This document shows positions 7,675-55,404 of a DNA stretch of 64,000 bases, one piece after another; position 1 is the first letter of the stretch; every line of letters starts with the position of its first letter. Made by a program: the position numbers and the translations under genes. Origin of the DNA: Escherichia phage vB_EcoS_I14. Where the stretch lies: the sequence record PP892525.1. One strand, written 5' to 3'. The notes under the pieces are model-generated. The model worked only from the letters and a program-made list of their open reading frames with translations. It made no database searches and was not told the origin of the DNA.

Positions 7675-9051
7675 ATGACTATTGATATTAATAAGCTGAA
7701 AGAAGAACTTGGTCTGGGTGATCTGGCTAAATCTCTGGAAGGTCTGACCGCTGCTCAGAAAGCTGCTGAAGCTGAACGTATGCGTAAAGAGCAGGAAGAA
7801 AAAGAACTGGCTCGTATGAATGATCTGGTTTCTAAAGCAGTTGGCGAAGATCGTCAGAAGCTAGAAGAAGCTCTGGAACTGGTTAAATCCCTGGATGAGA
7901 AATCTAAGAAGAGCGCAGAACTGTTTGCACAGACTGTAGAAAAACAGCAGGAAACTATTGTTGGTCTTCAGGACGAAATCAAATCTCTGCTAGCAGCTCG
8001 TGAAGGTCGTTCCTTCGTTGGTGATAGCGTAGCTAAAGCACTGTATGGTACTCAGGAAGCTTTTGAAGATGAAGTTGAAAAACTGGTTCTGCTATCCTAT
8101 GTAATGGAAAAAGGCGTATTCGAAACTGAACATGGTCAGAATCACCTTAAAGCTGTAAACACCTCTTCTTCAGTTCAGGTTTCCAGTGAAAACTATGAAA
8201 CTATTTTCTCCCAGCGTATCATTCGTGATCTGCAGAAAGAGCTGGTAGTTGGTGCACTGTTCGAAGAATTGCCGATGTCTAGTAAGATTCTTACTATGCT
8301 AGTTGAACCAGATGCTGGTAAAGCTACTTGGGTTGCTGCTTCTACTTATGGTACTGATGCAACTACTGGTGAAGAAGTTAAAGGTGCTCTGACTGAAATT
8401 CATTTCAGTACTTACAAACTGGCTGCTAAATCCTTTATCACTGATGAAACTGAAGAAGATGCAATCTTCTCTCTGCTGCCTCTGCTTCGTAAGCGTCTGA
8501 TTGAAGCACACGCTGTTTCTATCGAAGAAGCCTTCATGACCGGTGATGGTTCCGGTAAGCCGAAAGGTTTGCTGACTCTTGCTAGCGAAGATGGTGCTAA
8601 AGTTACTACTGAAGCTAAAGCTGATGGTACTGTTCTGGTAACTGCTAAAACTATTTCTAAACTGCGTCGTAAACTTGGCCGTCATGGTCTGAAACTGAGC
8701 AAACTGGTACTGATCGTATCTATGGATGCTTACTACGACCTGCTAGAAGATGAAGAATGGCAGGATGTTGCACAGGTTGGTAATGATGCTGTTAAACTGC
8801 AAGGTCAGGTTGGTCGTATTTATGGTCTGCCGGTTGTAGTTTCTGAGTACTTCCCAGCTAAAGCAGCAGATAAAGAGTTTGCAGTTATTGTTTATAAAGA
8901 TAACTTCGTAATGCCGCGCCAGCGTGCTGTTACTGTTGAACGTGAGCGCCAAGCTGGCAAACAGCGTGACGCATACTACGTTACTCAGCGTGTTAACCTG
9001 CAACGTTACTTTGCAAATGGCGTTGTATCCGGTGCTTACGCTAGCGCTTAA
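7675..9051 (+). CDS. major capsid protein precursor (pb8-like, HK97 fold with N-terminal scaffolding delta domain)
   Basis: 458 aa; coiled-coil-rich N-terminal about 160 aa (delta domain) then capsid-fold region; high codon-adapted composition; followed by strong terminator. Confidence 0.9.
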   Translation: MTIDINKLKEELGLGDLAKSLEGLTAAQKAAEAERMRKEQEEKELARMNDLVSKAVGEDRQKLEEALELVKSLDEKSKKSAELFAQTVEKQQETIVGLQDEIKSLLAAREGRSFVGDSVAKALYGTQEAFEDEVEKLVLLSYVMEKGVFETEHGQNHLKAVNTSSSVQVSSENYETIFSQRIIRDLQKELVVGALFEELPMSSKILTMLVEPDAGKATWVAASTYGTDATTGEEVKGALTEIHFSTYKLAAKSFITDETEEDAIFSLLPLLRKRLIEAHAVSIEEAFMTGDGSGKPKGLLTLASEDGAKVTTEAKADGTVLVTAKTISKLRRKLGRHGLKLSKLVLIVSMDAYYDLLEDEEWQDVAQVGNDAVKLQGQVGRIYGLPVVVSEYFPAKAADKEFAVIVYKDNFVMPRQRAVTVERERQAGKQRDAYYVTQRVNLQRYFANGVVSGAYASA

Positions 9052-41617: not shown

Positions 41618-42385
41618 TTATTCAGCAGCCGCAGCTTTTGCATCCAGTTTAGCACGCTTAGCGGCACCATCATAGTCCTTAGCAACCAGACCACGACGAG
41701 ACAGCATAGATTTAACACCGCGCTCAGACTTACCAGTTTTCTCAGCGATCTCAGCAACAGTCATGTTAACCAGATCCAGACCTTCTAACAAATCTTCACG
41801 AGTTTTAGCACTTGAAGTTTCCTGTACCGGCATAGCAGCGATACGACCTTCACGAAGCAGGCTCAGAGCTTTACCACGGATCTGCTTGATATTACGACCG
41901 AAGTGAGCAGCAATAGCTTCAATAGTAGCACCAGCAACAACCTGATTAACAAAATCAGTTTCTTCATCCGGAGTGAAGGAACGAACAGCGGCAGCTTTTT
42001 CAGTTGGTTTAACAGAAGCGGTCATTTCCAGACTCAGGATCTTACCCTGTACCTGCTTAGCACCGAACTGACCACCAGCTACAGCAGCAGCGATTTCAGC
42101 ATAGGTATACTGACCAGCATGAGCGTTCAGGAAATCAACCAGTTCAGCTTCCTGCTCGGGAGTCCACGGGGATTTCTGTACTTCGTTAGCTTTCTGTACT
42201 TCAAAACCTTCTTTACGCAGTTTAGAGCCAACAGAGCGAGCAGTAACATCTTTGCCAGTTTCAGCAGCCAGTTCAGCAGCGATAGCAGCTACTTGTTCTT
42301 GAGAGATTACAGCAACACCCAGAGCAGTGGCTTTTGCTTTCAGAGACTCGGTTACACCTTCTACGTTCCAGTTCAGTTTAGACAT
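41618..42385 (-). CDS. hypothetical protein with internal duplicated segment (possible DNA-binding protein)
   Basis: 255 aa, Ala-rich; two related segments (GKILSLEMTASVK / GKALSLLREGRIAAM). Confidence 0.4.
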   Translation of the reverse strand: MSKLNWNVEGVTESLKAKATALGVAVISQEQVAAIAAELAAETGKDVTARSVGSKLRKEGFEVQKANEVQKSPWTPEQEAELVDFLNAHAGQYTYAEIAAAVAGGQFGAKQVQGKILSLEMTASVKPTEKAAAVRSFTPDEETDFVNQVVAGATIEAIAAHFGRNIKQIRGKALSLLREGRIAAMPVQETSSAKTREDLLEGLDLVNMTVAEIAEKTGKSERGVKSMLSRRGLVAKDYDGAAKRAKLDAKAAAAE

Positions 42386-43160
42386 TATTATTTTTCTCCA
42401 ATAGTTCTTTAATCGACAGGATTTCTATCCCATTCGTTTCGGCTTTCTTATAAGATGAGGAAGAACGTTTTGATTCATCCTCACAGATTAGGTATTTGAC
42501 GTCTTTAGTAACGGATTTCTTAACCGTATACCCTAGACTTTCTAAATAGTTTGTTGCATCCGTTCTATTTGCAAAATCTTGCAAAGATCCGGTAATACAT
42601 ACCGCGATTCCATTTGGCTGGGCAACTAATTCATCTGTAATGATGATATTAGCTTTAGTGCCCCTAATACCAGTTGAAAATTTCCACGGTAGTTCGATAA
42701 CATCTTTGCCTTGTGGGGAATTTAGCCAGGCTTTATAATTTTCTCCAGCCTTGCCGTCAGCCTTCACATCGTGGAAGCTAGTGCAATTTTGGGATAATTT
42801 CTTTGCTGCAACCTCTCCAATTAGAGGGATTCCTAAAGAACCGAGAACTGAACCAAAGTCAATGTCTCCGCGAACTTTAGTATTTAATTCGCTAATTAAC
42901 TTAGCGGCAACCTTGCTACCCACGGCTCTAACCAAATCTTCTTCGGTTAGGTAAAATAGTTCTGAAATCTTCGTCAGCTCCAGCTTCTCAATAGTTTTTG
43001 GGCCAAAGCCCTTTAACTTCATTTTTGTACAGAAGTTCTCAATTAACTTACTTGATTGTGCTGGACAGTTGGACTTATTACGACAGAATAATTGTCCGTT
43101 GACAAGATCTAGCTTAGAACCACAAGAGGGACATTGTGTTGGAATTTCGATTTTCATCAA
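42378..43160 (-). CDS. NAD-dependent DNA ligase, C-terminal subunit (Zn finger + HhH)
   Basis: 260 aa; C4 zinc finger (CPSCGSKLD...CRNKSNC) and helix-hairpin-helix (IPLIGEVAAKKL, GIRG). Confidence 0.8.
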   Translation of the reverse strand: MMKIEIPTQCPSCGSKLDLVNGQLFCRNKSNCPAQSSKLIENFCTKMKLKGFGPKTIEKLELTKISELFYLTEEDLVRAVGSKVAAKLISELNTKVRGDIDFGSVLGSLGIPLIGEVAAKKLSQNCTSFHDVKADGKAGENYKAWLNSPQGKDVIELPWKFSTGIRGTKANIIITDELVAQPNGIAVCITGSLQDFANRTDATNYLESLGYTVKKSVTKDVKYLICEDESKRSSSSYKKAETNGIEILSIKELLEKNNNV

Positions 43161-43187
43161 ATTTCTTCCTTATCAATTTATATAAAT

Positions 43188-43216
43188 ATTATAGCAAGTA
43201 TTTAAGCATTTAGCAA
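43188..43216 (-). promoter_or_regulatory. early sigma70 promoter between the two ligase genes (TTGCTA-17-TATAAT)
   Basis: Reverse complement: ttgcta aatgcttaaatacttgc tataat, in the 199-bp spacer separating ligase halves. Confidence 0.6.
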
Positions 43217-43359
43217 CTACAATTTTAACTAACTTTGCTTACCCTCGCCATAACTTTCTATCCCTCAACTGAATGATAATAGTATATACCTAAGCGGCGA
43301 AAATGTCAATAACCACTTTATAATTCCGATATGGTAGATGGGTAGCAAAGGGTTATGTA

Positions 43360-44331
43360 TTAATCGTATACTCGCTCTACTATGCACGGGATTACACCAC
43401 CAGCACGAATCACTCGAATCTGGCAACCGATCTCTAGATCAAGAGAGTTAATATAATCAACGTTATTAAGAGTCGCTTTAACAATTGTAGCGTCATCAAT
43501 AATTACCGGTTCGAAATAACCAACTGGAGTTACTTTACCAGAAGCCCCTACCTGCCATTCAACTTTAGTAAGAGTTGTAATCTCGCCTTCTTCATCCTCT
43601 TTAATAGCGAATGCCCCACGAGGGAATTTATTAGTCCAGCCTTCACGGAAGAATTTGTTGTTGTCATTAATACGAACAACTTTACCGTCCGTCGGAATCC
43701 ATTTAAAGAAGGAACGCACATTAACAACTGTTAAGAAATCTTCATTCTCTAGCCAGAGCATATCTTTTAAATATGATTCTGTAATACCTACAGATTCAGC
43801 AGAACACTGGATACCGTATGCAACAAAGATTAAACCACCTTCCCCGATACGTTGTACGAAATCATCGCTATCTTTGAGGTTAATAGCGCCAGAGGCAAAG
43901 TTACGTTTATTTTCTACTTCTTTTGTAATTAGAACTTCACCAGTAATTTGAGTAGGTACTTTTTGGGAAATCTTTTTAGGGATGTTCAGCAATCTTACGT
44001 TGCTTGTGACATCATTCCCTAGAATGCCATTACCGCGAGTTAGTGCTTGAACAAATTCGCCATTAATATATAACAGAGAAATCGCACAACCATCTAACTT
44101 ATCAGTTTCTACCTGACCTAATGGGTTAAACGGAGGTTTATCCCCACGATTATAATAAACTTTCTGTAAAGAATACATACGATACAGATGTGGAATATCT
44201 CCCTTAGGCCCAATCTCTTCCTCTAGTGGGAATCTTTTAATCAGACGATCATATTCTTCGTCAGAGATTAAAGACATTCCCTGGTAATACGCTTCTTGGC
44301 AACGTTTAATAAAGTCTTTTACATTAGTCAT
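43360..44331 (-). CDS. NAD-dependent DNA ligase, N-terminal subunit (adenylation + OB domain)
   Basis: 323 aa; adenylation lysine motif KLDG (ETDKLDGCAIS) and downstream nucleotidyltransferase/OB motifs. Confidence 0.8.
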   Translation of the reverse strand: MTNVKDFIKRCQEAYYQGMSLISDEEYDRLIKRFPLEEEIGPKGDIPHLYRMYSLQKVYYNRGDKPPFNPLGQVETDKLDGCAISLLYINGEFVQALTRGNGILGNDVTSNVRLLNIPKKISQKVPTQITGEVLITKEVENKRNFASGAINLKDSDDFVQRIGEGGLIFVAYGIQCSAESVGITESYLKDMLWLENEDFLTVVNVRSFFKWIPTDGKVVRINDNNKFFREGWTNKFPRGAFAIKEDEEGEITTLTKVEWQVGASGKVTPVGYFEPVIIDDATIVKATLNNVDYINSLDLEIGCQIRVIRAGGVIPCIVERVYD

Positions 44332-46656: not shown

Positions 46657-46899
46657 TTACGATTCCTTGAGCAAAGAAGCAAGTTCAGCATAGACTTTAT
46701 CTAACTCAAAGCCGATGCGAAGAGACACGTTAGTTTTCCGTTGTTTAAGTAACCACTCGGATATGTTAGGGATGCCAGCTAATCTATGTGGTACCACCCT
46801 ACATAGCTTTTCCGAAGTGTCGTAAACAGGAACTTTACGTTCTTTTACTGGGAACTTCCTTGTTTCCCATTTTTTATTCTTCACTGTCATTTCTAGCAC
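46657..46899 (-). CDS. hypothetical protein
   Basis: 80 aa ORF overlapping 3' end of large ATPase gene. Confidence 0.4.
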   Translation of the reverse strand: MLEMTVKNKKWETRKFPVKERKVPVYDTSEKLCRVVPHRLAGIPNISEWLLKQRKTNVSLRIGFELDKVYAELASLLKES

Positions 46900-49663
46900 C
46901 TAGCTCTGCCATTGCTTCATCATGCATATGTTTCTCCTCATCAGTCATAAACTTATACGGGATTGGCATACATTCGATTTTACAATAGGTTCTGTACCAG
47001 TCTACAATATTCTCCGTGTTCATATCCTTACCAATACCCATCATACCAAGATACATTCTGGCATATTTTGGGTTAGCACTCTGACCTGTTTTAAGGAAGA
47101 AATCTTTCTTCTTACCTTTCAGAGCTTCTATGAATGGTTTGATAGTGACATTTGAGCACTTCTTAATATCTTCCCAGAACATCTCGTGCATTTTATGGAA
47201 GAATGCCGCTCGATCATTCGGTTTATCCTTGATATACTGCTCAACATGCTCAACTGTTACATCTTTAATAGACTCAAGATGATAATAGCGAACAAGAAGT
47301 AGTTTAGCTTCATACGCATCTGCATGACGTGGAGCACAATAATCAGGAGTTGAATACAAAATAGCTTTGATTCGCTCTTCCGTATATTCTTTTCCTGCAC
47401 CTTCGATAGTTCCCCAGCTTTCACTGAAAATATCAATAGTTGCACCCTGATCAAGCAAGTAATAACGTAAAGTACTAGTATAGTTCCTAGATTCCAGCTC
47501 CCTACGACGTGCGTATAATTGCTGTGCTAACTCCAGCCAACCTTCATCAATGTTATACTGTTCAGAACCTGCGGAGAATCCACTCGTAGATTTATCAATA
47601 AAATAATAAATGTTCTGGGCACCACGGTCGCGCCTGATTGCTTGGAAACGCATGTTTGGCGCTTGGTTGCTAGTTCTAGTAATAACGAATACGTTATCAA
47701 AATAGTTGAAGTCAACACCACTCGTTACGGATGGACTACATAATAAGCAATCAATTTGTTGGTCAATTAACTCATTAGTTGTGTAATCCAGAATACGTCG
47801 AATATCTACATCAGACGTAGAGTTTGAGTGGATTTCCTTAACTAACGCACCCGTATTACGACGCAACGCCATGCCCTTCTCATTCAGTTCATCCGGCCCA
47901 CAGTCAGATACTAGGATAGATTTCTCCCCCATCTCTAGAGATGTCTGAAGCGCAACCCAAATACTGGATTCATCAGGGAACTCATAAGCATGAGCTTTTG
48001 ACAGCATTTTTCGGTGATGATTATAAAATGCAACCGGTTTATCAAACTCAATCAAGGAACCATATGCTTCAATTGTTTCTGCACTAATATCACCATCAGA
48101 TAATATAATGATTTTTGCAGTTGCAAGAATATCCCGAAGAACCTGAATGCATTCACGACGTTGTTTAACAACCGGGGCGAATAGTAGGTCATTCATTACA
48201 GCATCACATTCATCGATAAAGATTGCATCAATTTGACCAATAAAACTCTTGAACTTATGCAAAGAGTGAATAGTTGTGGACATACGGTCAATAGCACCAC
48301 GCTTAAAATTAAGCATATCTACAGACTTATCATATTGTCCTGCACTAAATTTCTTAGCATTTGAAGACACCAGTGCTCTAGTATTGGTAATTGCTAAGAA
48401 ATTACCTTTAATAACTCCCGAATCTAACCAACGCACAACCGCCGTGGTTTTACCTGTACCTAGACTTGCTTTTACAAAAGTCATATAACCTTCTGGTGGC
48501 ACAGTATTTAATTTCAAGAAGTTATCAGTTTCTAGGGAGTTAGTTTCTAGCTTTTTAAGTGGAATACCTTTTAAAACATCAGGTATATCGCGTTTAGAAT
48601 TATTAACAAACGCTTTCAGAGCCTGTTTACGACCGTTATTAAAGTAATCTTGAATATTACGACTATTATCTTTAGTTGCAATATATTCTGATAAGGCTGG
48701 GCGGATTTCTTTTTCTAGCCATGCAAAATCAACACCATCCTCTAAAGCCCTGTGATAGAGTTTAGGAATAATACGTAGATACACTCCATCCTCAGCTTCT
48801 TCTAGTTCGCTGATAGTTTCTTCTACTTTATCAGAGGCAGCTTTTTTACCCTTAATTTGGTCGAGTAAAGAGTAAAACTCCTCCTTAAACTCACCTCTAG
48901 TTGTTTCATAGTCAACCAGATTATTTGGTAAATTTACTTTAGAACCTTTAACAAATACCAGACGTGAAGCACCCTCCGCCTTAAACGGATCTACTATACC
49001 ATCGGTAAATAACGGATCTGCAAAATAATGGAGCTGTACGGAAGAGTAATAAGCTAAGTCGGCAATATCAAAGCCATACTTTTGTCTACTACTTTCGTTG
49101 ATAGATGTAAATAAGAATTTGATTTGACCCTGAGTTACTTTAACATTAGATTCTAGTATTAAGTGCATTCGGATACCTGGTTTTAGCCCAGCCGAAGATG
49201 ATGCATGAGCGATAAACCCTGCATCAAGAGGAAACATATCCTCACTAATACTATTTAACATTCTAATAATATGTCGAGCCATACCAACAAGATCAAACTT
49301 GTTACAACCACCTGTATCTACAATACCATCCACGTCCATTGCAATTATATGACTTGGGTTAGATACATTAAAGTTGCCCTTCTTACGTCGCACATTATTT
49401 TTAGGTGCAAGACATCGACCTCGTACCGCAACGATATGAGGGTCAGACGTTAAACGCCTCATAAGAGGGAGCATTTCTACTAGGGTTTGAGGATCAACTT
49501 CATCAATTACATCAAACTTGAAGGGCATTGAAGCTGGTTTACCTTCAGGATGCTTTGAGGAAAATCTTTTAGCAAAAAGATAGTCTTCTGCTTTAACTTC
49601 TCGCCAAATGCCTGTGGCTAAGTCGCGATGAAATCCTGCATGACCTTGTAGGATTGAGAACAC
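46874..49663 (-). CDS. large P-loop NTPase (helicase/replication-initiator-like)
   Basis: Walker A (GTGKTT) and Walker B-like (IFIDECD) motifs; track start is TTG 49741; GTG 49663 preceded by AGGAG is the more plausible start (about 929 aa). Confidence 0.6.
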   Translation of the reverse strand: MFSILQGHAGFHRDLATGIWREVKAEDYLFAKRFSSKHPEGKPASMPFKFDVIDEVDPQTLVEMLPLMRRLTSDPHIVAVRGRCLAPKNNVRRKKGNFNVSNPSHIIAMDVDGIVDTGGCNKFDLVGMARHIIRMLNSISEDMFPLDAGFIAHASSSAGLKPGIRMHLILESNVKVTQGQIKFLFTSINESSRQKYGFDIADLAYYSSVQLHYFADPLFTDGIVDPFKAEGASRLVFVKGSKVNLPNNLVDYETTRGEFKEEFYSLLDQIKGKKAASDKVEETISELEEAEDGVYLRIIPKLYHRALEDGVDFAWLEKEIRPALSEYIATKDNSRNIQDYFNNGRKQALKAFVNNSKRDIPDVLKGIPLKKLETNSLETDNFLKLNTVPPEGYMTFVKASLGTGKTTAVVRWLDSGVIKGNFLAITNTRALVSSNAKKFSAGQYDKSVDMLNFKRGAIDRMSTTIHSLHKFKSFIGQIDAIFIDECDAVMNDLLFAPVVKQRRECIQVLRDILATAKIIILSDGDISAETIEAYGSLIEFDKPVAFYNHHRKMLSKAHAYEFPDESSIWVALQTSLEMGEKSILVSDCGPDELNEKGMALRRNTGALVKEIHSNSTSDVDIRRILDYTTNELIDQQIDCLLCSPSVTSGVDFNYFDNVFVITRTSNQAPNMRFQAIRRDRGAQNIYYFIDKSTSGFSAGSEQYNIDEGWLELAQQLYARRRELESRNYTSTLRYYLLDQGATIDIFSESWGTIEGAGKEYTEERIKAILYSTPDYCAPRHADAYEAKLLLVRYYHLESIKDVTVEHVEQYIKDKPNDRAAFFHKMHEMFWEDIKKCSNVTIKPFIEALKGKKKDFFLKTGQSANPKYARMYLGMMGIGKDMNTENIVDWYRTYCKIECMPIPYKFMTDEEKHMHDEAMAELGARNDSEE

Positions 49664-50162
49664 AACAATACTCCTGTGTTGGAAATGAAATAAGTTTTCT
49701 TTAGGACTATTCAGAAAGAATAGAACAACTGTTACTGTCAATTTCTCAACAAATTAATTGCAAATACTGAAGTGGGGTGGCAACTTCCACTTTCACGCTA
49801 CACTGCCGCTTCACTATACCGCACAAATCCTTGAGGATGGCCGCTAAGCCAGATTTGCTCACCTAATGCTTCATGTACTAGCTCATACTAGATGTAGTAT
49901 ACCTTACGTCATCACTTCTCAGAGTTTTTCACTCTTCCCGTCTCACTTCACAACCACCTCACACTAGGTTGCTTCGAGGCCTTACCAGGGTTCCTACGGG
50001 ATGTAGATCGCTAAGTATTCTATTAATTATTTGTTTAAAAACTAACACGTAACAGTTAAAACAACCCTTAATGGGGCAGCCTAACTGTTCCGTATCGCGG
50101 ATTGTAAACAAGAAAAATTAGCAAAATCAATTTTTACTAATGTCTCTCAATTCAATATAAAT

Positions 50163-50282: not shown

Positions 50283-50675
50283 TCATTCATCATTTAGGCC
50301 TGGAACATAGATCCCAACACGGTTTAATTGTTCTTTAGCTTCTTTGAGAATATCTGGAGTGTACTCCCAAATATCATCTTCCACCTGTAAAAGATGGGGC
50401 GAACAACCGTCATCCGGCACACGACATATGGCCAAACCACGTGGATGGAACAAAGAGAAATTTAGGGCAACAATTAAACCCATAGCAGACAATTCATTCC
50501 AATCCAATTCCCATTCCCCCGCGTAGCCGGATAGGAAAACACCAACACAGGGATCATCTATTTGCTGCTCCGGAAAAGTGAGGGAGGCTTGTCTTACCCC
50601 CAACCAACGTTGTAGCAGCTTCTCCGCACGTTTCACCAAACTAGGGTCAATCTGACGCCAATATACTTGTTCCAT
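50283..50675 (-). CDS. hypothetical protein (paralog of 50685..51113)
   Basis: 130 aa; shares CxG..V..G..EW.L.W.EL..MGL..ALN..LF.P pattern with adjacent ORF. Confidence 0.5.
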   Translation of the reverse strand: MEQVYWRQIDPSLVKRAEKLLQRWLGVRQASLTFPEQQIDDPCVGVFLSGYAGEWELDWNELSAMGLIVALNFSLFHPRGLAICRVPDDGCSPHLLQVEDDIWEYTPDILKEAKEQLNRVGIYVPGLNDE

Positions 50676-50684
50676 TCTGCCTCC

Positions 50685-51113
50685 TTAAGCAGTTAAACCT
50701 GGGATCATATACCCGAAACGGCGAAGTTTTTGAATCCCCTCATTTACTTCTTCCGGTGAGTAAGACCAACCATAACGTTCATTAATCTGAAAACCAGGAG
50801 ATTCACTAGTTTTATAGTTAACAACGAGGCGGTGCTTAGCAGGCATAAACAGCTTATAATTTAACGCAAAAACTAAGCCCATTTCGTCTAACTCTTTCCA
50901 GCCCACAATCTCTTCAAGACCATCCTCTACCTGAACAATTAAACCAATACAGGGAGCCTCATCAATATCATCTTTAAAAGCAAAGGAGATTTCGTTATTC
51001 TCACACCATATTTTCAAAGAGTTAATAGCCTCATTATACAGGCTAGCTGGGAGGGTACGCCAAAAGTTAACCAAAATTGGGTTAGCCTCTTTAGAGAAGA
51101 CATTATTAAACAT
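50685..51113 (-). CDS. hypothetical protein (paralog of 50283..50675)
   Basis: 142 aa; conserved CIGLIVQVEDG...GWKELDEMGLVFALNYKLFMP block aligned with neighbour. Confidence 0.5.
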   Translation of the reverse strand: MFNNVFSKEANPILVNFWRTLPASLYNEAINSLKIWCENNEISFAFKDDIDEAPCIGLIVQVEDGLEEIVGWKELDEMGLVFALNYKLFMPAKHRLVVNYKTSESPGFQINERYGWSYSPEEVNEGIQKLRRFGYMIPGLTA

Positions 51114-51115
51114 AT

Positions 51116-51622
51116 TTACACCTTAAATTGTTGTAGGGCTTTACACATTTCAAGATCTGGACTAAATTCTAACATATAGCTAACAGCTTTTAAATCTTGA
51201 AGATTTATTCCAGTCCTACCGTTGACTATAACCGTTGGATACTGATACATCATAGCACCCGCATCATCAAGCACACACCAATGTTTGAGCTTATGCTTTT
51301 CAACGAAGCGAAGAACAGAATTGCCCCTAGATAATCCACCCCCAGTAAAATCCGTTGTACCAAGAAAACGATCGATAAGGCCTAATCCGGTCATAATCTG
51401 AACGTTCTCCATCTCATTTCTGACAGAGAACCAAGATGATACTCCAACAATCATTATCGGAGAAGGACGAATAAAGTCCTGAAAAGCCTTGAGAAGCGGT
51501 TTGAAAACCCAGTCACTTCCAAAGAAAATCTTTTCATTATCAGGTGCATGATGGTGGGAGATGCTCGAATTGAGCACCCCATCAATATCTAGAAAAATAA
51601 TTGGAGTATTACTTATTTCCAT
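51116..51622 (-). CDS. HAD-superfamily phosphatase (nucleotidase/polynucleotide-phosphatase-like)
   Basis: 168 aa; N-terminal HAD motif I (IIFLDIDGVLNS) and C-terminal DD motif (WCVLDDAG). Confidence 0.6.
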   Translation of the reverse strand: MEISNTPIIFLDIDGVLNSSISHHHAPDNEKIFFGSDWVFKPLLKAFQDFIRPSPIMIVGVSSWFSVRNEMENVQIMTGLGLIDRFLGTTDFTGGGLSRGNSVLRFVEKHKLKHWCVLDDAGAMMYQYPTVIVNGRTGINLQDLKAVSYMLEFSPDLEMCKALQQFKV

Positions 51623-51818
51623 TTTTGTTCCTTTCTAAGAACGTATCATACTCAACCGTATCAACATATATAACACCATAGTCATCGGATTTATAGTCCA
51701 TTTCCCACAGCTCACAGCGATAGCACCAACTACCATCTGCCCATACAAATATATCATCGGGATGTGTATAAACAGATTTAACTATGGACATATCTGTTTC
51801 CCTTGCTTCTCGACACAT
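51609..51818 (-). CDS. hypothetical protein
   Basis: 69 aa ORF overlapping both neighbours. Confidence 0.35.
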   Translation of the reverse strand: MCREARETDMSIVKSVYTHPDDIFVWADGSWCYRCELWEMDYKSDDYGVIYVDTVEYDTFLERNKNGNK

Positions 51819-52614
51819 AAGGTCTACCCTCTAAATGAGCTTCTACACGAGCAATAAAATCAGGGTCACTAAAAGCATCTACCGCACCTTTACTCCAGTA
51901 AGGGATACCGCGTTCTTCCAACTGGTACATCTCACTACGAGTCATACCTTGATAGCCCGGTTCTGCTGCGAGGGCACTATCATAGTAGTTAACAACCATA
52001 AGTTTCGCAGCAGTCAAATTAAGAACAGGAAATAATTCCCAGTAGAAGTTAATTACTTGGTTAGAGCAACCAACCACAATGATCATATCTTGACTGGTAA
52101 TACCATCAAAAACATTATACATTTCTGCGTATGCAGGAGCATGTTCTCCAAAGAAGATTACATTAGGTTTAACCCATTTATAATCATCTGGATCAATAGA
52201 ATTATACCCTACATCAATAATCCGTTTATTGCTACTATTGTAGCTATCAGCTACAACAACCTCTTTTAAATATCCGTGAATGTGCAGAATGTCACTATGT
52301 GGAACGCCAGCACGCTCAATAAGGTCATCAACGTTGGTAGTCAAGTTTACTACTTGACCTGGATATTGTTTATACCATTCACCAATACGCAAATGTGCAA
52401 GATTGGGTTCAACAGTTTTTAGCTCTTCACGACGTTTGTTGTAAAACATATGGGTTTTATGGTAAAAATTACCACGAAAGGCATGAATATTACATACTTC
52501 TTCTAGATCATAATCATCCCACAATGCTTTACCACTAGCAGTATCAGTACGAAAAGCTCGTACACCACTTTCAACACTCAAACCTGCACCGCTAATAATA
52601 ATTACCCTACGCAT
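51778..52614 (-). CDS. Sir2-family (sirtuin-like) NAD-dependent protein
   Basis: 278 aa; sirtuin Rossmann motifs GAGLSVESGVRAFR, TTNVDDL, IHGY, VVGCSN. Confidence 0.65.
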   Translation of the reverse strand: MRRVIIISGAGLSVESGVRAFRTDTASGKALWDDYDLEEVCNIHAFRGNFYHKTHMFYNKRREELKTVEPNLAHLRIGEWYKQYPGQVVNLTTNVDDLIERAGVPHSDILHIHGYLKEVVVADSYNSSNKRIIDVGYNSIDPDDYKWVKPNVIFFGEHAPAYAEMYNVFDGITSQDMIIVVGCSNQVINFYWELFPVLNLTAAKLMVVNYYDSALAAEPGYQGMTRSEMYQLEERGIPYWSKGAVDAFSDPDFIARVEAHLEGRPYVSRSKGNRYVHS

Positions 52615-52828
52615 TTTTCACCTGTTCTCTGAAGTTTTGCCCAATACTGTCTAATAGCTCAGCTAATTCTTTATTGCCTTTCTCCATTAAGGTATTAGCA
52701 ATAACTTCTAGCATAGTAGCACAGGATTCAACACCATCCTTATAGCCAGTTTCCCAGTGCTGCATTAATGCGTTTTCCAAAGCGGAGTTTAAACCCTTAT
52801 CTGGCAGCATCGGCTTCGAGAATGCCAT
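52607..52828 (-). CDS. hypothetical protein
   Basis: 73 aa ORF coupled to Sir2-like gene. Confidence 0.4.
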   Translation of the reverse strand: MAFSKPMLPDKGLNSALENALMQHWETGYKDGVESCATMLEVIANTLMEKGNKELAELLDSIGQNFREQVKNA

Positions 52829-53000
52829 AAAGTTTCTCCTCTAGTTCCATAACACGATTTTCATAAGAGGCACGCAACTTTTCAATTGCTAGCGCACGCA
52901 CTGTAACCTCATTAGAATTAATAGCTAATTGGGCCAGATCTTCTGTTTCCATACGTCCGTTGTAAATTAAGCGATATTTAAGATGTTTTACGTTTTTCAT
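52797..53000 (-). CDS. hypothetical protein
   Basis: 67 aa ORF. Confidence 0.4.
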   Translation of the reverse strand: MKNVKHLKYRLIYNGRMETEDLAQLAINSNEVTVRALAIEKLRASYENRVMELEEKLYGILEADAAR

Positions 53001-53009
53001 TCTTGTTCC

Positions 53010-53291
53010 TTAGTTCTGTACTGTAAATTCATTCTTATCACAGTGAGCATAATAATACCCGTACATACGATAAATTTTCACAGCCTTAGTAGACCCCTTC
53101 GATTCTTCATAATCGATCCAGAGCCACTTGTCTTTACCTACATAGTGTACCCGAAACTTCTTAACCTTCTTATCATTCCATGTTGCAACAACACGACGAT
53201 AATCAAATCCACCCAACCAATCTAGAGCCTTACGTTCTTCACTAGGCTCTCCAAGATGGGAGACATCTACTTTAGGAAGCAACTCGCTCAT
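53010..53291 (-). CDS. hypothetical protein
   Basis: 93 aa ORF directly downstream of early promoter. Confidence 0.45.
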   Translation of the reverse strand: MSELLPKVDVSHLGEPSEERKALDWLGGFDYRRVVATWNDKKVKKFRVHYVGKDKWLWIDYEESKGSTKAVKIYRMYGYYYAHCDKNEFTVQN

Positions 53292-53349: not shown

Positions 53350-53390
53350 TAAAATAAAAGCCAGGTCGACTAGCAACCCGGCTGATTAGC

Positions 53391-55265: not shown

Positions 55266-55295
55266 TATACCCTCCTTCTCTAACTAAGACTACTA

Positions 55296-55324
55296 TTATA
55301 ACTCATTCGAAGGCGGATGTCAAC
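55296..55324 (-). promoter_or_regulatory. consensus sigma70 promoter for nrdD (TTGACA-17-TATAAT)
   Basis: Reverse complement: ttgaca tccgccttcgaatgagt tataat, about 30 nt upstream of nrdD ATG. Confidence 0.65.
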
Positions 55325-55375
55325 AATATTTTACTATAAAGTTCTATAACATGATCTGAGTCAAAAAATTTTATT

Positions 55376-55404
55376 TGCCAACCTCTACTAAAAATAGTAT
55401 AATC
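55376..55404 (+). promoter_or_regulatory. early sigma70 promoter (TTGCCA-17-TATAAT), distal of two tandem + promoters
   Basis: ttgcca acctctactaaaaatag tataat, about 200 nt upstream of phoH. Confidence 0.55.

Follow-up and report, generated by a model that had tools for sequence, protein, structure and literature searches.

The closest described relatives of the locus reported here are the sirtuin and HAD genes of phages T5 and SP15. Annotation of the T5 sirtuin dates back to the publication of the T5 genome, and SP15 serves as the prototype of a conserved neighbourhood in which a sirtuin is accompanied by a Swiss Army Knife (SAK)-like HAD protein (Iyer, Burroughs, Anantharaman and Aravind 2022, Viruses 14:1977; PMC9503650). 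From gene context, these authors predicted that the sirtuins act like KptA, removing 2'-phosphates from RNA, and that the phosphoesterases found with them serve either to open cyclic phosphates or to process ADPr>P, the by-product. The DNA analysed here, referred to as the window, is a stretch of 64,000 nucleotides from Escherichia phage vB_EcoS_I14 (PP892525.1), a T5-like phage (Demerecviridae, Markadamsvirinae). Positions 51116-52614 are covered by three overlapping open reading frames (ORFs) on the minus strand, which encode a Sir2-family protein (sirtuin) of 278 amino acids (aa), a 69-aa protein (orf69) and a HAD-family phosphatase of 168 aa. Sir2 and HAD are 97.0% and 97.6% identical to their counterparts in Escherichia phage SP15, where they have the same arrangement, and the pair can be assigned to the SP15-type viral sirtuin clade with SAK-like HAD. 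T5 and SP15 share the genes, their order and their flanks with the window (nrdD, then Sir2, small ORF, HAD, two DUF7415 genes and the origin-binding protein gene); apart from the two small ORFs annotated between the pair in T5, where the window phage has one, nothing material differs. The feature is already known in the sense that it is annotated and that a mechanistic prediction for its neighbourhood is in print. Our own reading, which is tentative and to which we give somewhat less than an even chance, is that the pair forms an accessory early module (T5.102/T5.105) in which, by analogy, a KptA-like, RNA- or phosphate-directed sirtuin would be combined with a HAD phosphatase acting on the by-product or on RNA ends.

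The 278-aa protein matched the Pfam family SIR2 (PF02146) with E = 8.2e-25 (88.2 bits, cut-off 24) and phrog_2162 with E = 1.4e-121, while an NCBIfam scan returned sub-threshold CobB-type matches only. Among solved structures, E. coli CobB (1s5p; E = 7.9e-18) is the nearest by sequence, ahead of archaeal Sir2 homologues and SIRT5. An AlphaFold2 (AF2) model built on 64 clade members (pLDDT 88.8) was compared with solved structures by Foldseek, and the ranking agreed with that of the sequence search, CobB being found with E = 3.8e-18 and a target-normalised TM-score of 0.85. The motifs are GAGLS (aa 9-13), FR (21-22), FYNKRR (57-62), TTNVD (92-96), HG (113-114) and FGE (155-157). Residues G9, A10, G11, S13, F21, R22, N94, D96, H113, G114, F154, F155 and E157 are invariant in the alignment of the 64 clade members, and so are Y58 and R61, the class III Y-x-x-R signature, which align with FYNARR of CobB. 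As judged from this alignment, the sirtuin retains every residue for NAD+ (nicotinamide adenine dinucleotide) binding and for cleavage of the nicotinamide-ribose bond.

The protein shares the Rossmann fold and the GAGxS, FR, N-x-D, catalytic His-Gly, FGE and Y-x-x-R motifs with CobB and SIRT5, but differs from them in its low identity (~25%), in its phage-specific gene contexts and in two residues or groups of residues. It contains only two cysteines (C41 and C183), none of them in the zinc-module segment (aa 114-150), so that a Cys4 module is absent, and the Q of the TQNxD motif is replaced by T93. Relatives were searched among 1.84 billion representative proteins at E <= 1e-3, which gave 3043 hits, including 46 at E <= 1e-30. 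All of the 146 nearest cluster representatives have H113 and N94 (146/146); Y58 occurs in 139 of them and R61 in 111. At least three cysteines occur in the zinc segment of 93/146; the dominant states are 'Q, zinc' (77 clusters) and 'T, no zinc' (34 clusters), and the closest ~25 clusters are zinc-less with T at position 93. The protein is thus a zinc-less, phage-centred offshoot of the CobB/SIRT5 (Y-x-x-R) sirtuins that is catalytically intact in its motifs.

This kinship bears on a first alternative, namely that the protein is an ordinary lysine deacylase which, like CobB, strips acetyl, succinyl or malonyl groups from host or phage proteins early in infection, with the HAD being merely a neighbour. 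CobB and SIRT5 as the best matches in both sequence and fold speak for such an enzyme, as do the invariant FGE loop, the catalytic His and the Y-x-x-R that reads succinyl and malonyl groups. The standard database annotation is of this type, the same view was taken of the Vibrio phage homologues (PMC5107563), and an acidic enzyme surface would suit basic protein substrates. The explanation has difficulties, however, with the loss of a zinc module that is conserved in characterised deacylases and with the change from Q to T in TQN, and we regard it as possible but on the unlikely side.

The 168-aa protein matched the Pfam family HAD_SAK_2 (PF18143, 'HAD domain in Swiss Army Knife RNA repair proteins') with E = 7.3e-20 (72 bits, cut-off 27.5). 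All four HAD motifs (DxD, S/T, K/R and DD) are present, which places the protein in this family, and the residues concerned (D12/D14, S62/S63, R99 and D119/D120) are kept in homologues down to 37% identity; R99 sits in an invariant TGGGxSRG loop. The model (pLDDT 94) has the HAD fold without a cap insertion. A sequence search of the PDB gave no useful match for the HAD or for the first DUF7415 protein (DUF7415a). Foldseek matches of the HAD were weak, the closest structures being MDP-1, the C-terminal domain (CTD) phosphatase SCP1 and UBLCP1, which are capless HADs with large substrates. With these and other capless (C0) HADs (MDP-1, SCP1/FCP1, UBLCP1 and the phosphatase domain of T4 Pnkp) the protein has the DxD, Ser, Arg/Lys and DD residues and the lack of a cap in common. 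The HAD domain of T4 Pnkp heals RNA 2',3'-cyclic and 3'-phosphate ends.

Database labels of the HAD have to be read with care. In many RefSeq and Pharokka records it is mislabelled 'Sir2 (NAD-dependent deacetylase)', so that such records seem to contain Sir2 twice ('Sir2 x2'), and T5.105 in NC_005859 is affected as well. The error can be traced to phrog_18062, a family with a Sir2 label whose match (E = 4.4e-58) covers the 92 C-terminal aa of the HAD. Deletion chimeras that join Sir2 to the HAD C-terminus, for example in SelmaRatti, may have seeded the wrong label.

A preliminary description of this DNA, made from the sequence without database searches, had reported a 278-aa sirtuin-like protein next to a HAD-family phosphatase in the early region. 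The ORF is exact, the motifs quoted for it were all located, and the adjacency to the HAD proved to be conserved. The early location agrees with the synteny to T5 early genes, and the profile search and structure prediction that had been proposed as a check confirmed the sirtuin fold with an intact catalytic His, Asn and Asp.

Relatives of the sirtuin were detected by tblastn in 1007 of 50,697 phage records (~2%), among them T5-like phages, Vequintavirinae and other ~145 kb myophages, KVP40-like Vibrio phages and jumbo phages. The HAD was found in 500 phage records, ~440 of which are T5-like, and the two genes occur together in essentially all Salmonella and Escherichia T5-like records. Their order is Sir2-small ORF-HAD in Tequintavirus and Epseptimavirus. 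It is HAD-small ORF-Sir2 in three divergent Demerecviridae-like metagenomic contigs, in which the HAD is 39-45% identical, so the linkage of Sir2 and HAD has survived rearrangement. That the linkage to a phosphatase was kept through this flip is left unexplained if the sirtuin is a deacylase. The spacer gene was considered as a conserved third component and rejected, since orf69 shows no similarity to the 81-aa spacer ORF of one such locus (L002) and the spacer ORFs are not homologous across lineages. Natural deletions of ~1.3 kb in T5-like phages, which remove Sir2 and the N-terminal part of the HAD (L094 = IMG/VR UViG_2706796320; also PQ002169 and MZ501103), show that the module is dispensable for propagation and hence accessory.

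A comparison of alleles points in the same direction. When the window was compared with the Epseptimavirus phage 118970_sal2 (L010, Sir2 at 8001-8852), the flanks were found to be 87-100% identical overall (NrdD 98%, orf93 100%, HAD 91%, origin-binding protein 90%), but identity dropped to just 51.5% in Sir2 and to just 36% in orf73, the small ORF preceding it. The window Sir2 has higher identity with its counterpart in a divergent Demerecviridae-like contig (68%) and with myophage sirtuins (60-66%) than with the Sir2 of the sister genus. The orf73-Sir2 segment was evidently exchanged as a cassette, and such allele turnover is typical of accessory, host-interaction genes. Since the two genes were exchanged together, orf73 is a candidate partner of the sirtuin. 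In most Tequintavirus and Epseptimavirus loci it directly precedes Sir2, and translational coupling is suggested by the overlap of its stop with the Sir2 start.

To see which genes accompany the sirtuin elsewhere, a neighbour panel was scanned at 59 IMG/VR sirtuin loci. In ~145 kb myophages, whose sirtuins are 56-63% identical, Sir2 stands in an operon of the order metallophosphoesterase, RNA ligase, cREC, polynucleotide-kinase-like P-loop protein and Sir2. This RNA-repair operon context was found, in two arrangements, at ~13 myophage loci, which belong to few related lineages and are not independent counts; in Vequintavirus, kinase and phosphoesterase are divergently transcribed. The published RNA-repair context is independently confirmed by these loci. 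Neither this operon placement nor the recurrent NARP1 neighbourhood described below is explained by a lysine deacylase.

If the favoured reading of a KptA-like sirtuin with a partner phosphatase holds, the sirtuin would transfer ADP-ribose (ADPR) from NAD+ onto a phosphate that RNA damage has left behind, such as the cleavage of tRNA by anticodon nucleases of the host. The transfer would release nicotinamide and clear the phosphate, yielding ADPR 1'',2''-cyclic phosphate or 1''-phosphate. The HAD would strip the terminal or cyclic phosphate from the RNA end or from the phospho-ADPR by-product, in the latter case leaving plain ADPR; the context data favour the by-product as its substrate. In NARP1-carrying phages, the resulting ADPR would be rebuilt into NAD+. 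The proposed likeness to KptA/Tpt1 lies in the NAD+-dependent removal of RNA phosphate, with nicotinamide and ADPR cyclic phosphate as products, and in a comparable RNA-repair context. This resemblance is functional and hypothetical only, as the KptA fold is unrelated (ADP-ribosyltransferase superfamily) and the window sirtuin, unlike KptA, is acidic.

NARP1 (Adps/Namat) genes were found beside the sirtuin in about 10/28 non-Demerecviridae loci. At eight of the nine loci with Adps/Namat near the sirtuin, RNA-repair genes lie in between, and the pair is 5-8 kb away on the opposite strand. RNA-repair genes are absent at L072, where an Adps/Namat-like pair is the divergent neighbour of the sirtuin, and at L074, where a lone Nampt-like gene is located directly upstream of it. 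A link to NARP1 was also found for the HAD. Its closest homologues outside the T5-like phages (38% identity) are encoded by the first gene of an operon that also contains a PRPS-like (Adps) and a Nampt-like gene. This HAD-Adps-Namat operon occurs in Serratia phage ChuuTotoro (ON287369, 35888-39104; L003/L009), in two related records and in the metagenomic locus L004. It is rare, with three phage records and two metagenomic occurrences (L004 and a ~151 kb contig with P0136, whose neighbours were not inspected). The ChuuTotoro Nampt-like protein matches the solved Namat structures 9W5X/9W5W (PMC12774641) with E = 1e-115, compared with about 1e-48 for true NAMPTs, and for this reason we consider the operon a genuine NARP1. 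The PRPS-like protein has 287 aa, a short length that it shares with Adps, in which the C-terminal module of PRPS is missing; its PDB matches are canonical PRPS entries only, and its designation as Adps rests on the operon architecture and the 287-aa length. No sirtuin was detected in the complete 147 kb ChuuTotoro genome by hmmsearch with the clade profile (E <= 1).

Accessory enzymes beside NARP1 have been described. Adpp, a Macro-domain phosphatase in some NARP1 operons, converts ADPR-1''P (the 1''-phosphate) to ADPR and thereby defeats RES-type defence (Osterman et al. 2026 preprint), and the RyR-domain glycosidase RyDEP, encoded beside NARP1, feeds the pathway from cyclic ADPR signals. 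ADPR cyclic phosphate is a by-product of the KptA-type reaction and also a decay product of ADPR-PP in NARP1 reactions. By analogy, Adpp and RyDEP offer a precedent for the feeding of ADPR derivatives into NARP1. Neither the Adpp paper nor the RyDEP paper mentions a HAD or a sirtuin. The HAD-NARP1 link was not found in the literature searched, and the HAD homologue of the ChuuTotoro operon is a candidate HAD-fold associated phosphatase of NARP1. In the NARP1-AP system (Adps, Namat and Adpp) a phosphatase is part of the operon, a position held by HAD homologues in ChuuTotoro and its relatives. The window HAD differs from Adpp in having the HAD rather than the Macro fold, so that it does not belong to Adpp, and in that the window carries no NARP1 genes.

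Because the HAD partners either a sirtuin or NARP1, its substrate would most simply be phosphorylated ADPR. Of the two options given by Iyer et al., 'by-product processing' is the one favoured by this. The same argument indirectly favours a phosphate-directed sirtuin reaction over deacylation, since O-acyl-ADPR, the product of a deacylase, offers the HAD no phosphomonoester to remove. That one phosphatase goes with both a sirtuin and NARP1 would be accounted for most simply if both handle phosphorylated ADPR, which a KptA-like reaction makes and a deacylase does not. In its most specific form, the proposal is that the HAD is a phospho-ADPR phosphatase (acting on ADPR-1''P and/or ADPR-1'',2''-cyclic-P) and a HAD-fold counterpart of Adpp. 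It would be paired either with NARP1, by which NAD+ is rebuilt after RES-type cleavage or ADPR-PP decay, or with a zinc-less sirtuin, which would be the first enzyme of the sirtuin fold shown to take phosphates off RNA by transfer of ADP-ribosyl groups. In T5-like phages, the pairing with the sirtuin would amount to anti-defence, NAD-fuelled RNA repair with clearing of the by-product. We assign a low probability to this combined proposal.

The NARP1 contexts also allow an explanation in which RNA plays no part. The pair could provide a counter-defence at the level of small NAD and ADPR molecules, the HAD acting as an Adpp analogue on ADPR-1''P made by RES-type systems and the sirtuin processing NAD+ or a NAD-derived immune signal. 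Such a role would agree with the HAD-Adps-Namat operon in a phage without a sirtuin, with the Adpp and RyDEP precedents, with the sirtuins of L072 and L074, which adjoin NARP1 or Nampt-like genes in the absence of RNA-repair genes, and with the turnover of the Sir2 and orf73 alleles, which is as in host-interaction genes. T5-like phages moreover carry NARP3 and a NAD-dependent DNA ligase, so NAD supply matters to them. Yet the window has no NARP1 genes to use the ADPR, capless HADs usually act on large substrates, no sirtuin is known to act on such signals, and the HAD-NARP1 operon is rare. We therefore consider this explanation unlikely.

A third alternative is a phage-borne NADase or toxin of the defence type, which would bring about superinfection exclusion or host shut-off by NAD depletion. 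Sir2 domains can be NADases, and the residues for N-glycosidic cleavage are present. With the defence Sir2 NADases (ThsA, DSR1/DSR2, SIR2-HerA and SIR2-APAZ) the window sirtuin shares the Sir2 superfamily and the substrate NAD+, but it is encoded by a virulent phage, has no partner or sensor domains, and clusters with deacylase-type sirtuins and not with the ThsA, DSR or HerA-linked type. A PADLOC scan (E <= 0.01) of Sir2, HAD, orf69 and DUF7415a matched no family, and the defence-NADase reading was dropped on this result. In addition, the phage needs NAD+ for its own DNA ligase, and its relatives invest in NAD restoration. An enzyme of this kind is highly improbable. The preliminary description had interpreted the sirtuin by analogy with NAD-consuming antiphage effectors and the HAD as a nucleotide phosphatase. 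While the domains and the NAD theme stand, the analogy is not supported, given the lack of a PADLOC match and of a HerA, SLOG or Argonaute partner and the CobB/SIRT5-type nearest relatives; nor does a generic nucleotide phosphatase agree with a capless 'Swiss-army-knife RNA repair' HAD whose nearest structures are MDP-1 and SCP1. The suggested link to NAD or ADPR metabolism is plausible from the NARP1 neighbours of the sirtuin clade and of the HAD homologues, and a putative counter-defence role is likewise plausible.

Several observations weigh against a KptA-like sirtuin with a phosphatase partner. The sirtuin clade is acidic, with a median isoelectric point (pI) of 5.18 (range 4.6-6.05; 0/120 above pI 8), and the net charge of the window sirtuin, about -8, is atypical of an enzyme acting on RNA ends. 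V152, F154 and F155, which line the acyl-lysine tunnel, are invariant together with Y58/R61, as in an ordinary deacylase. No RNA ligase, polynucleotide kinase, cREC, metallophosphoesterase, Adps, Namat or tRNA gene was found in the window, so T5-like phages would have to rely on host enzymes for the pathway. The HAD is missing from Klebsiella T5-like phages, which keep Sir2 and the DUF7415 pair (82 versus 3 records; L011); at the Klebsiella loci L011, L069, L070 and L065 a sirtuin of ~49% identity is present and no HAD. The function of the sirtuin hence does not strictly need the HAD. The narrow range of lineages behind the myophage contexts belongs here as well, as do the distant HAD homologues in IMG/VR, whose neighbours are mostly uninformative; an RNA ligase/kinase/phosphoesterase cassette lies nearby at three loci, and Namat- or Adps-like genes do so at two or three. 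Finally, a literature search for experimental work on any phage sirtuin found none.

The coordinates of the features around the pair are compiled in Table 1. The minus-strand genes from orf93 to the second DUF7415 gene (DUF7415b) apparently form one transcription unit, in the order orf93, orf67, orf73, Sir2, orf69, HAD and two DUF7415 genes, followed by the gene for the origin-binding protein. The T5 annotation shows an equivalent layout, T5.100-T5.107, with T5.102 as Sir2 and T5.105 as HAD, a terminator and a promoter at the equivalent place between nrdD and T5.100, and a further terminator after T5.107. Synteny with the replication and nucleotide-metabolism genes of T5, with nrdD upstream and the origin-binding protein gene downstream, places the unit in the early region. 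A 3.4 kb segment around the locus has matches in 531 phage records, the top one being Salmonella phage HMD-7 (97.7% identity).

Table 1. Features of the Sir2-HAD transcription unit in the window (positions are those of the 64,000-nucleotide stretch)
Feature	Position	Strand	Remarks
Terminator-like hairpin after nrdD	53359..53383	-	10-bp stem with 6 GC pairs, then T-run; upstream limit of unit
orf93, first in unit	53010..53291	-	phrog_7953, E = 8.8e-66; 100% identical in Epseptimavirus
orf67	52797..53000	-	phrog_5236, E = 8.4e-46
orf73, small acidic protein	52607..52828	-	phrog_5827, E = 5.8e-31; stop overlaps Sir2 start
Sir2-family protein, 278 aa, T5.102 orthologue	51778..52614	-	Pfam SIR2, CobB-like fold
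orf69, between Sir2 and HAD	51609..51818	-	phrog_5116, E = 8.7e-30; overlaps both neighbours; position conserved
Capless HAD_SAK_2 phosphatase, 168 aa, T5.105 orthologue	51116..51622	-	PF18143
DUF7415 protein a, T5.106 orthologue	50685..51113	-	PF24187, E = 9.1e-35
DUF7415 protein b, T5.107 orthologue, tandem paralogue, last in unit	50283..50675	-	PF24187, E = 9.6e-31

In a related phage, orf69 is annotated in a 60-aa version, which corresponds to a start at 51791. Pfam scans of the small ORFs flanking Sir2 and HAD, in the window and in the divergent loci, yielded no families. The DUF7415 pair stays beside Sir2 in the Klebsiella T5-like phages without HAD. Notes in the T5 annotation hint that T4-like phages of Aeromonas and Morganella have DUF7415 homologues near the HAD; two loci were examined and showed none. 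In some records the DUF7415 genes (50283-51113) are labelled 'tail tube protein', a label that looks spurious.

Three further observations concern the surroundings of the unit. At 42378-44331, the minus strand has a 323-aa and a 260-aa ORF side by side, ~200 bp apart; the syntenic genes of HMD-7 are both labelled NAD-dependent DNA ligase, and T5 has a split ligA/ligB (T5.116/T5.117). Since the ligase of the phage is NAD-dependent, phage replication requires NAD+. The intergenic region between nrdD and phoH (55295-55403) contains back-to-back near-consensus sigma-70 promoters. The one directed at nrdD (minus strand) reads TTGACA-17-TATAAT, the one directed at phoH (plus strand) TTGCCA-17-TATAAT. 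The ORF of the origin-binding protein (46874-49741) was called from a TTG and has 955 aa; its true start is probably further downstream, because annotated orthologues have ~929 aa.

The locus itself is ordinary and already annotated, and the remaining interest lies in the biochemistry of the pair and in the HAD-NARP1 link. It is now recognised that NAD+ is central to the conflict of bacteria with their phages. Clearance of RNA phosphates by the sirtuin with NAD+ would, if real, be a new chemistry for the sirtuin fold and a new arm of phage tRNA repair. If the HAD dephosphorylates phospho-ADPR, it would be a second, unrelated solution beside the Macro-domain Adpp and would connect the repair of RNA with the recycling of NAD. 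Both ideas are directly testable, as genetic manipulation is feasible in T5-like phages and their BASEL relatives.

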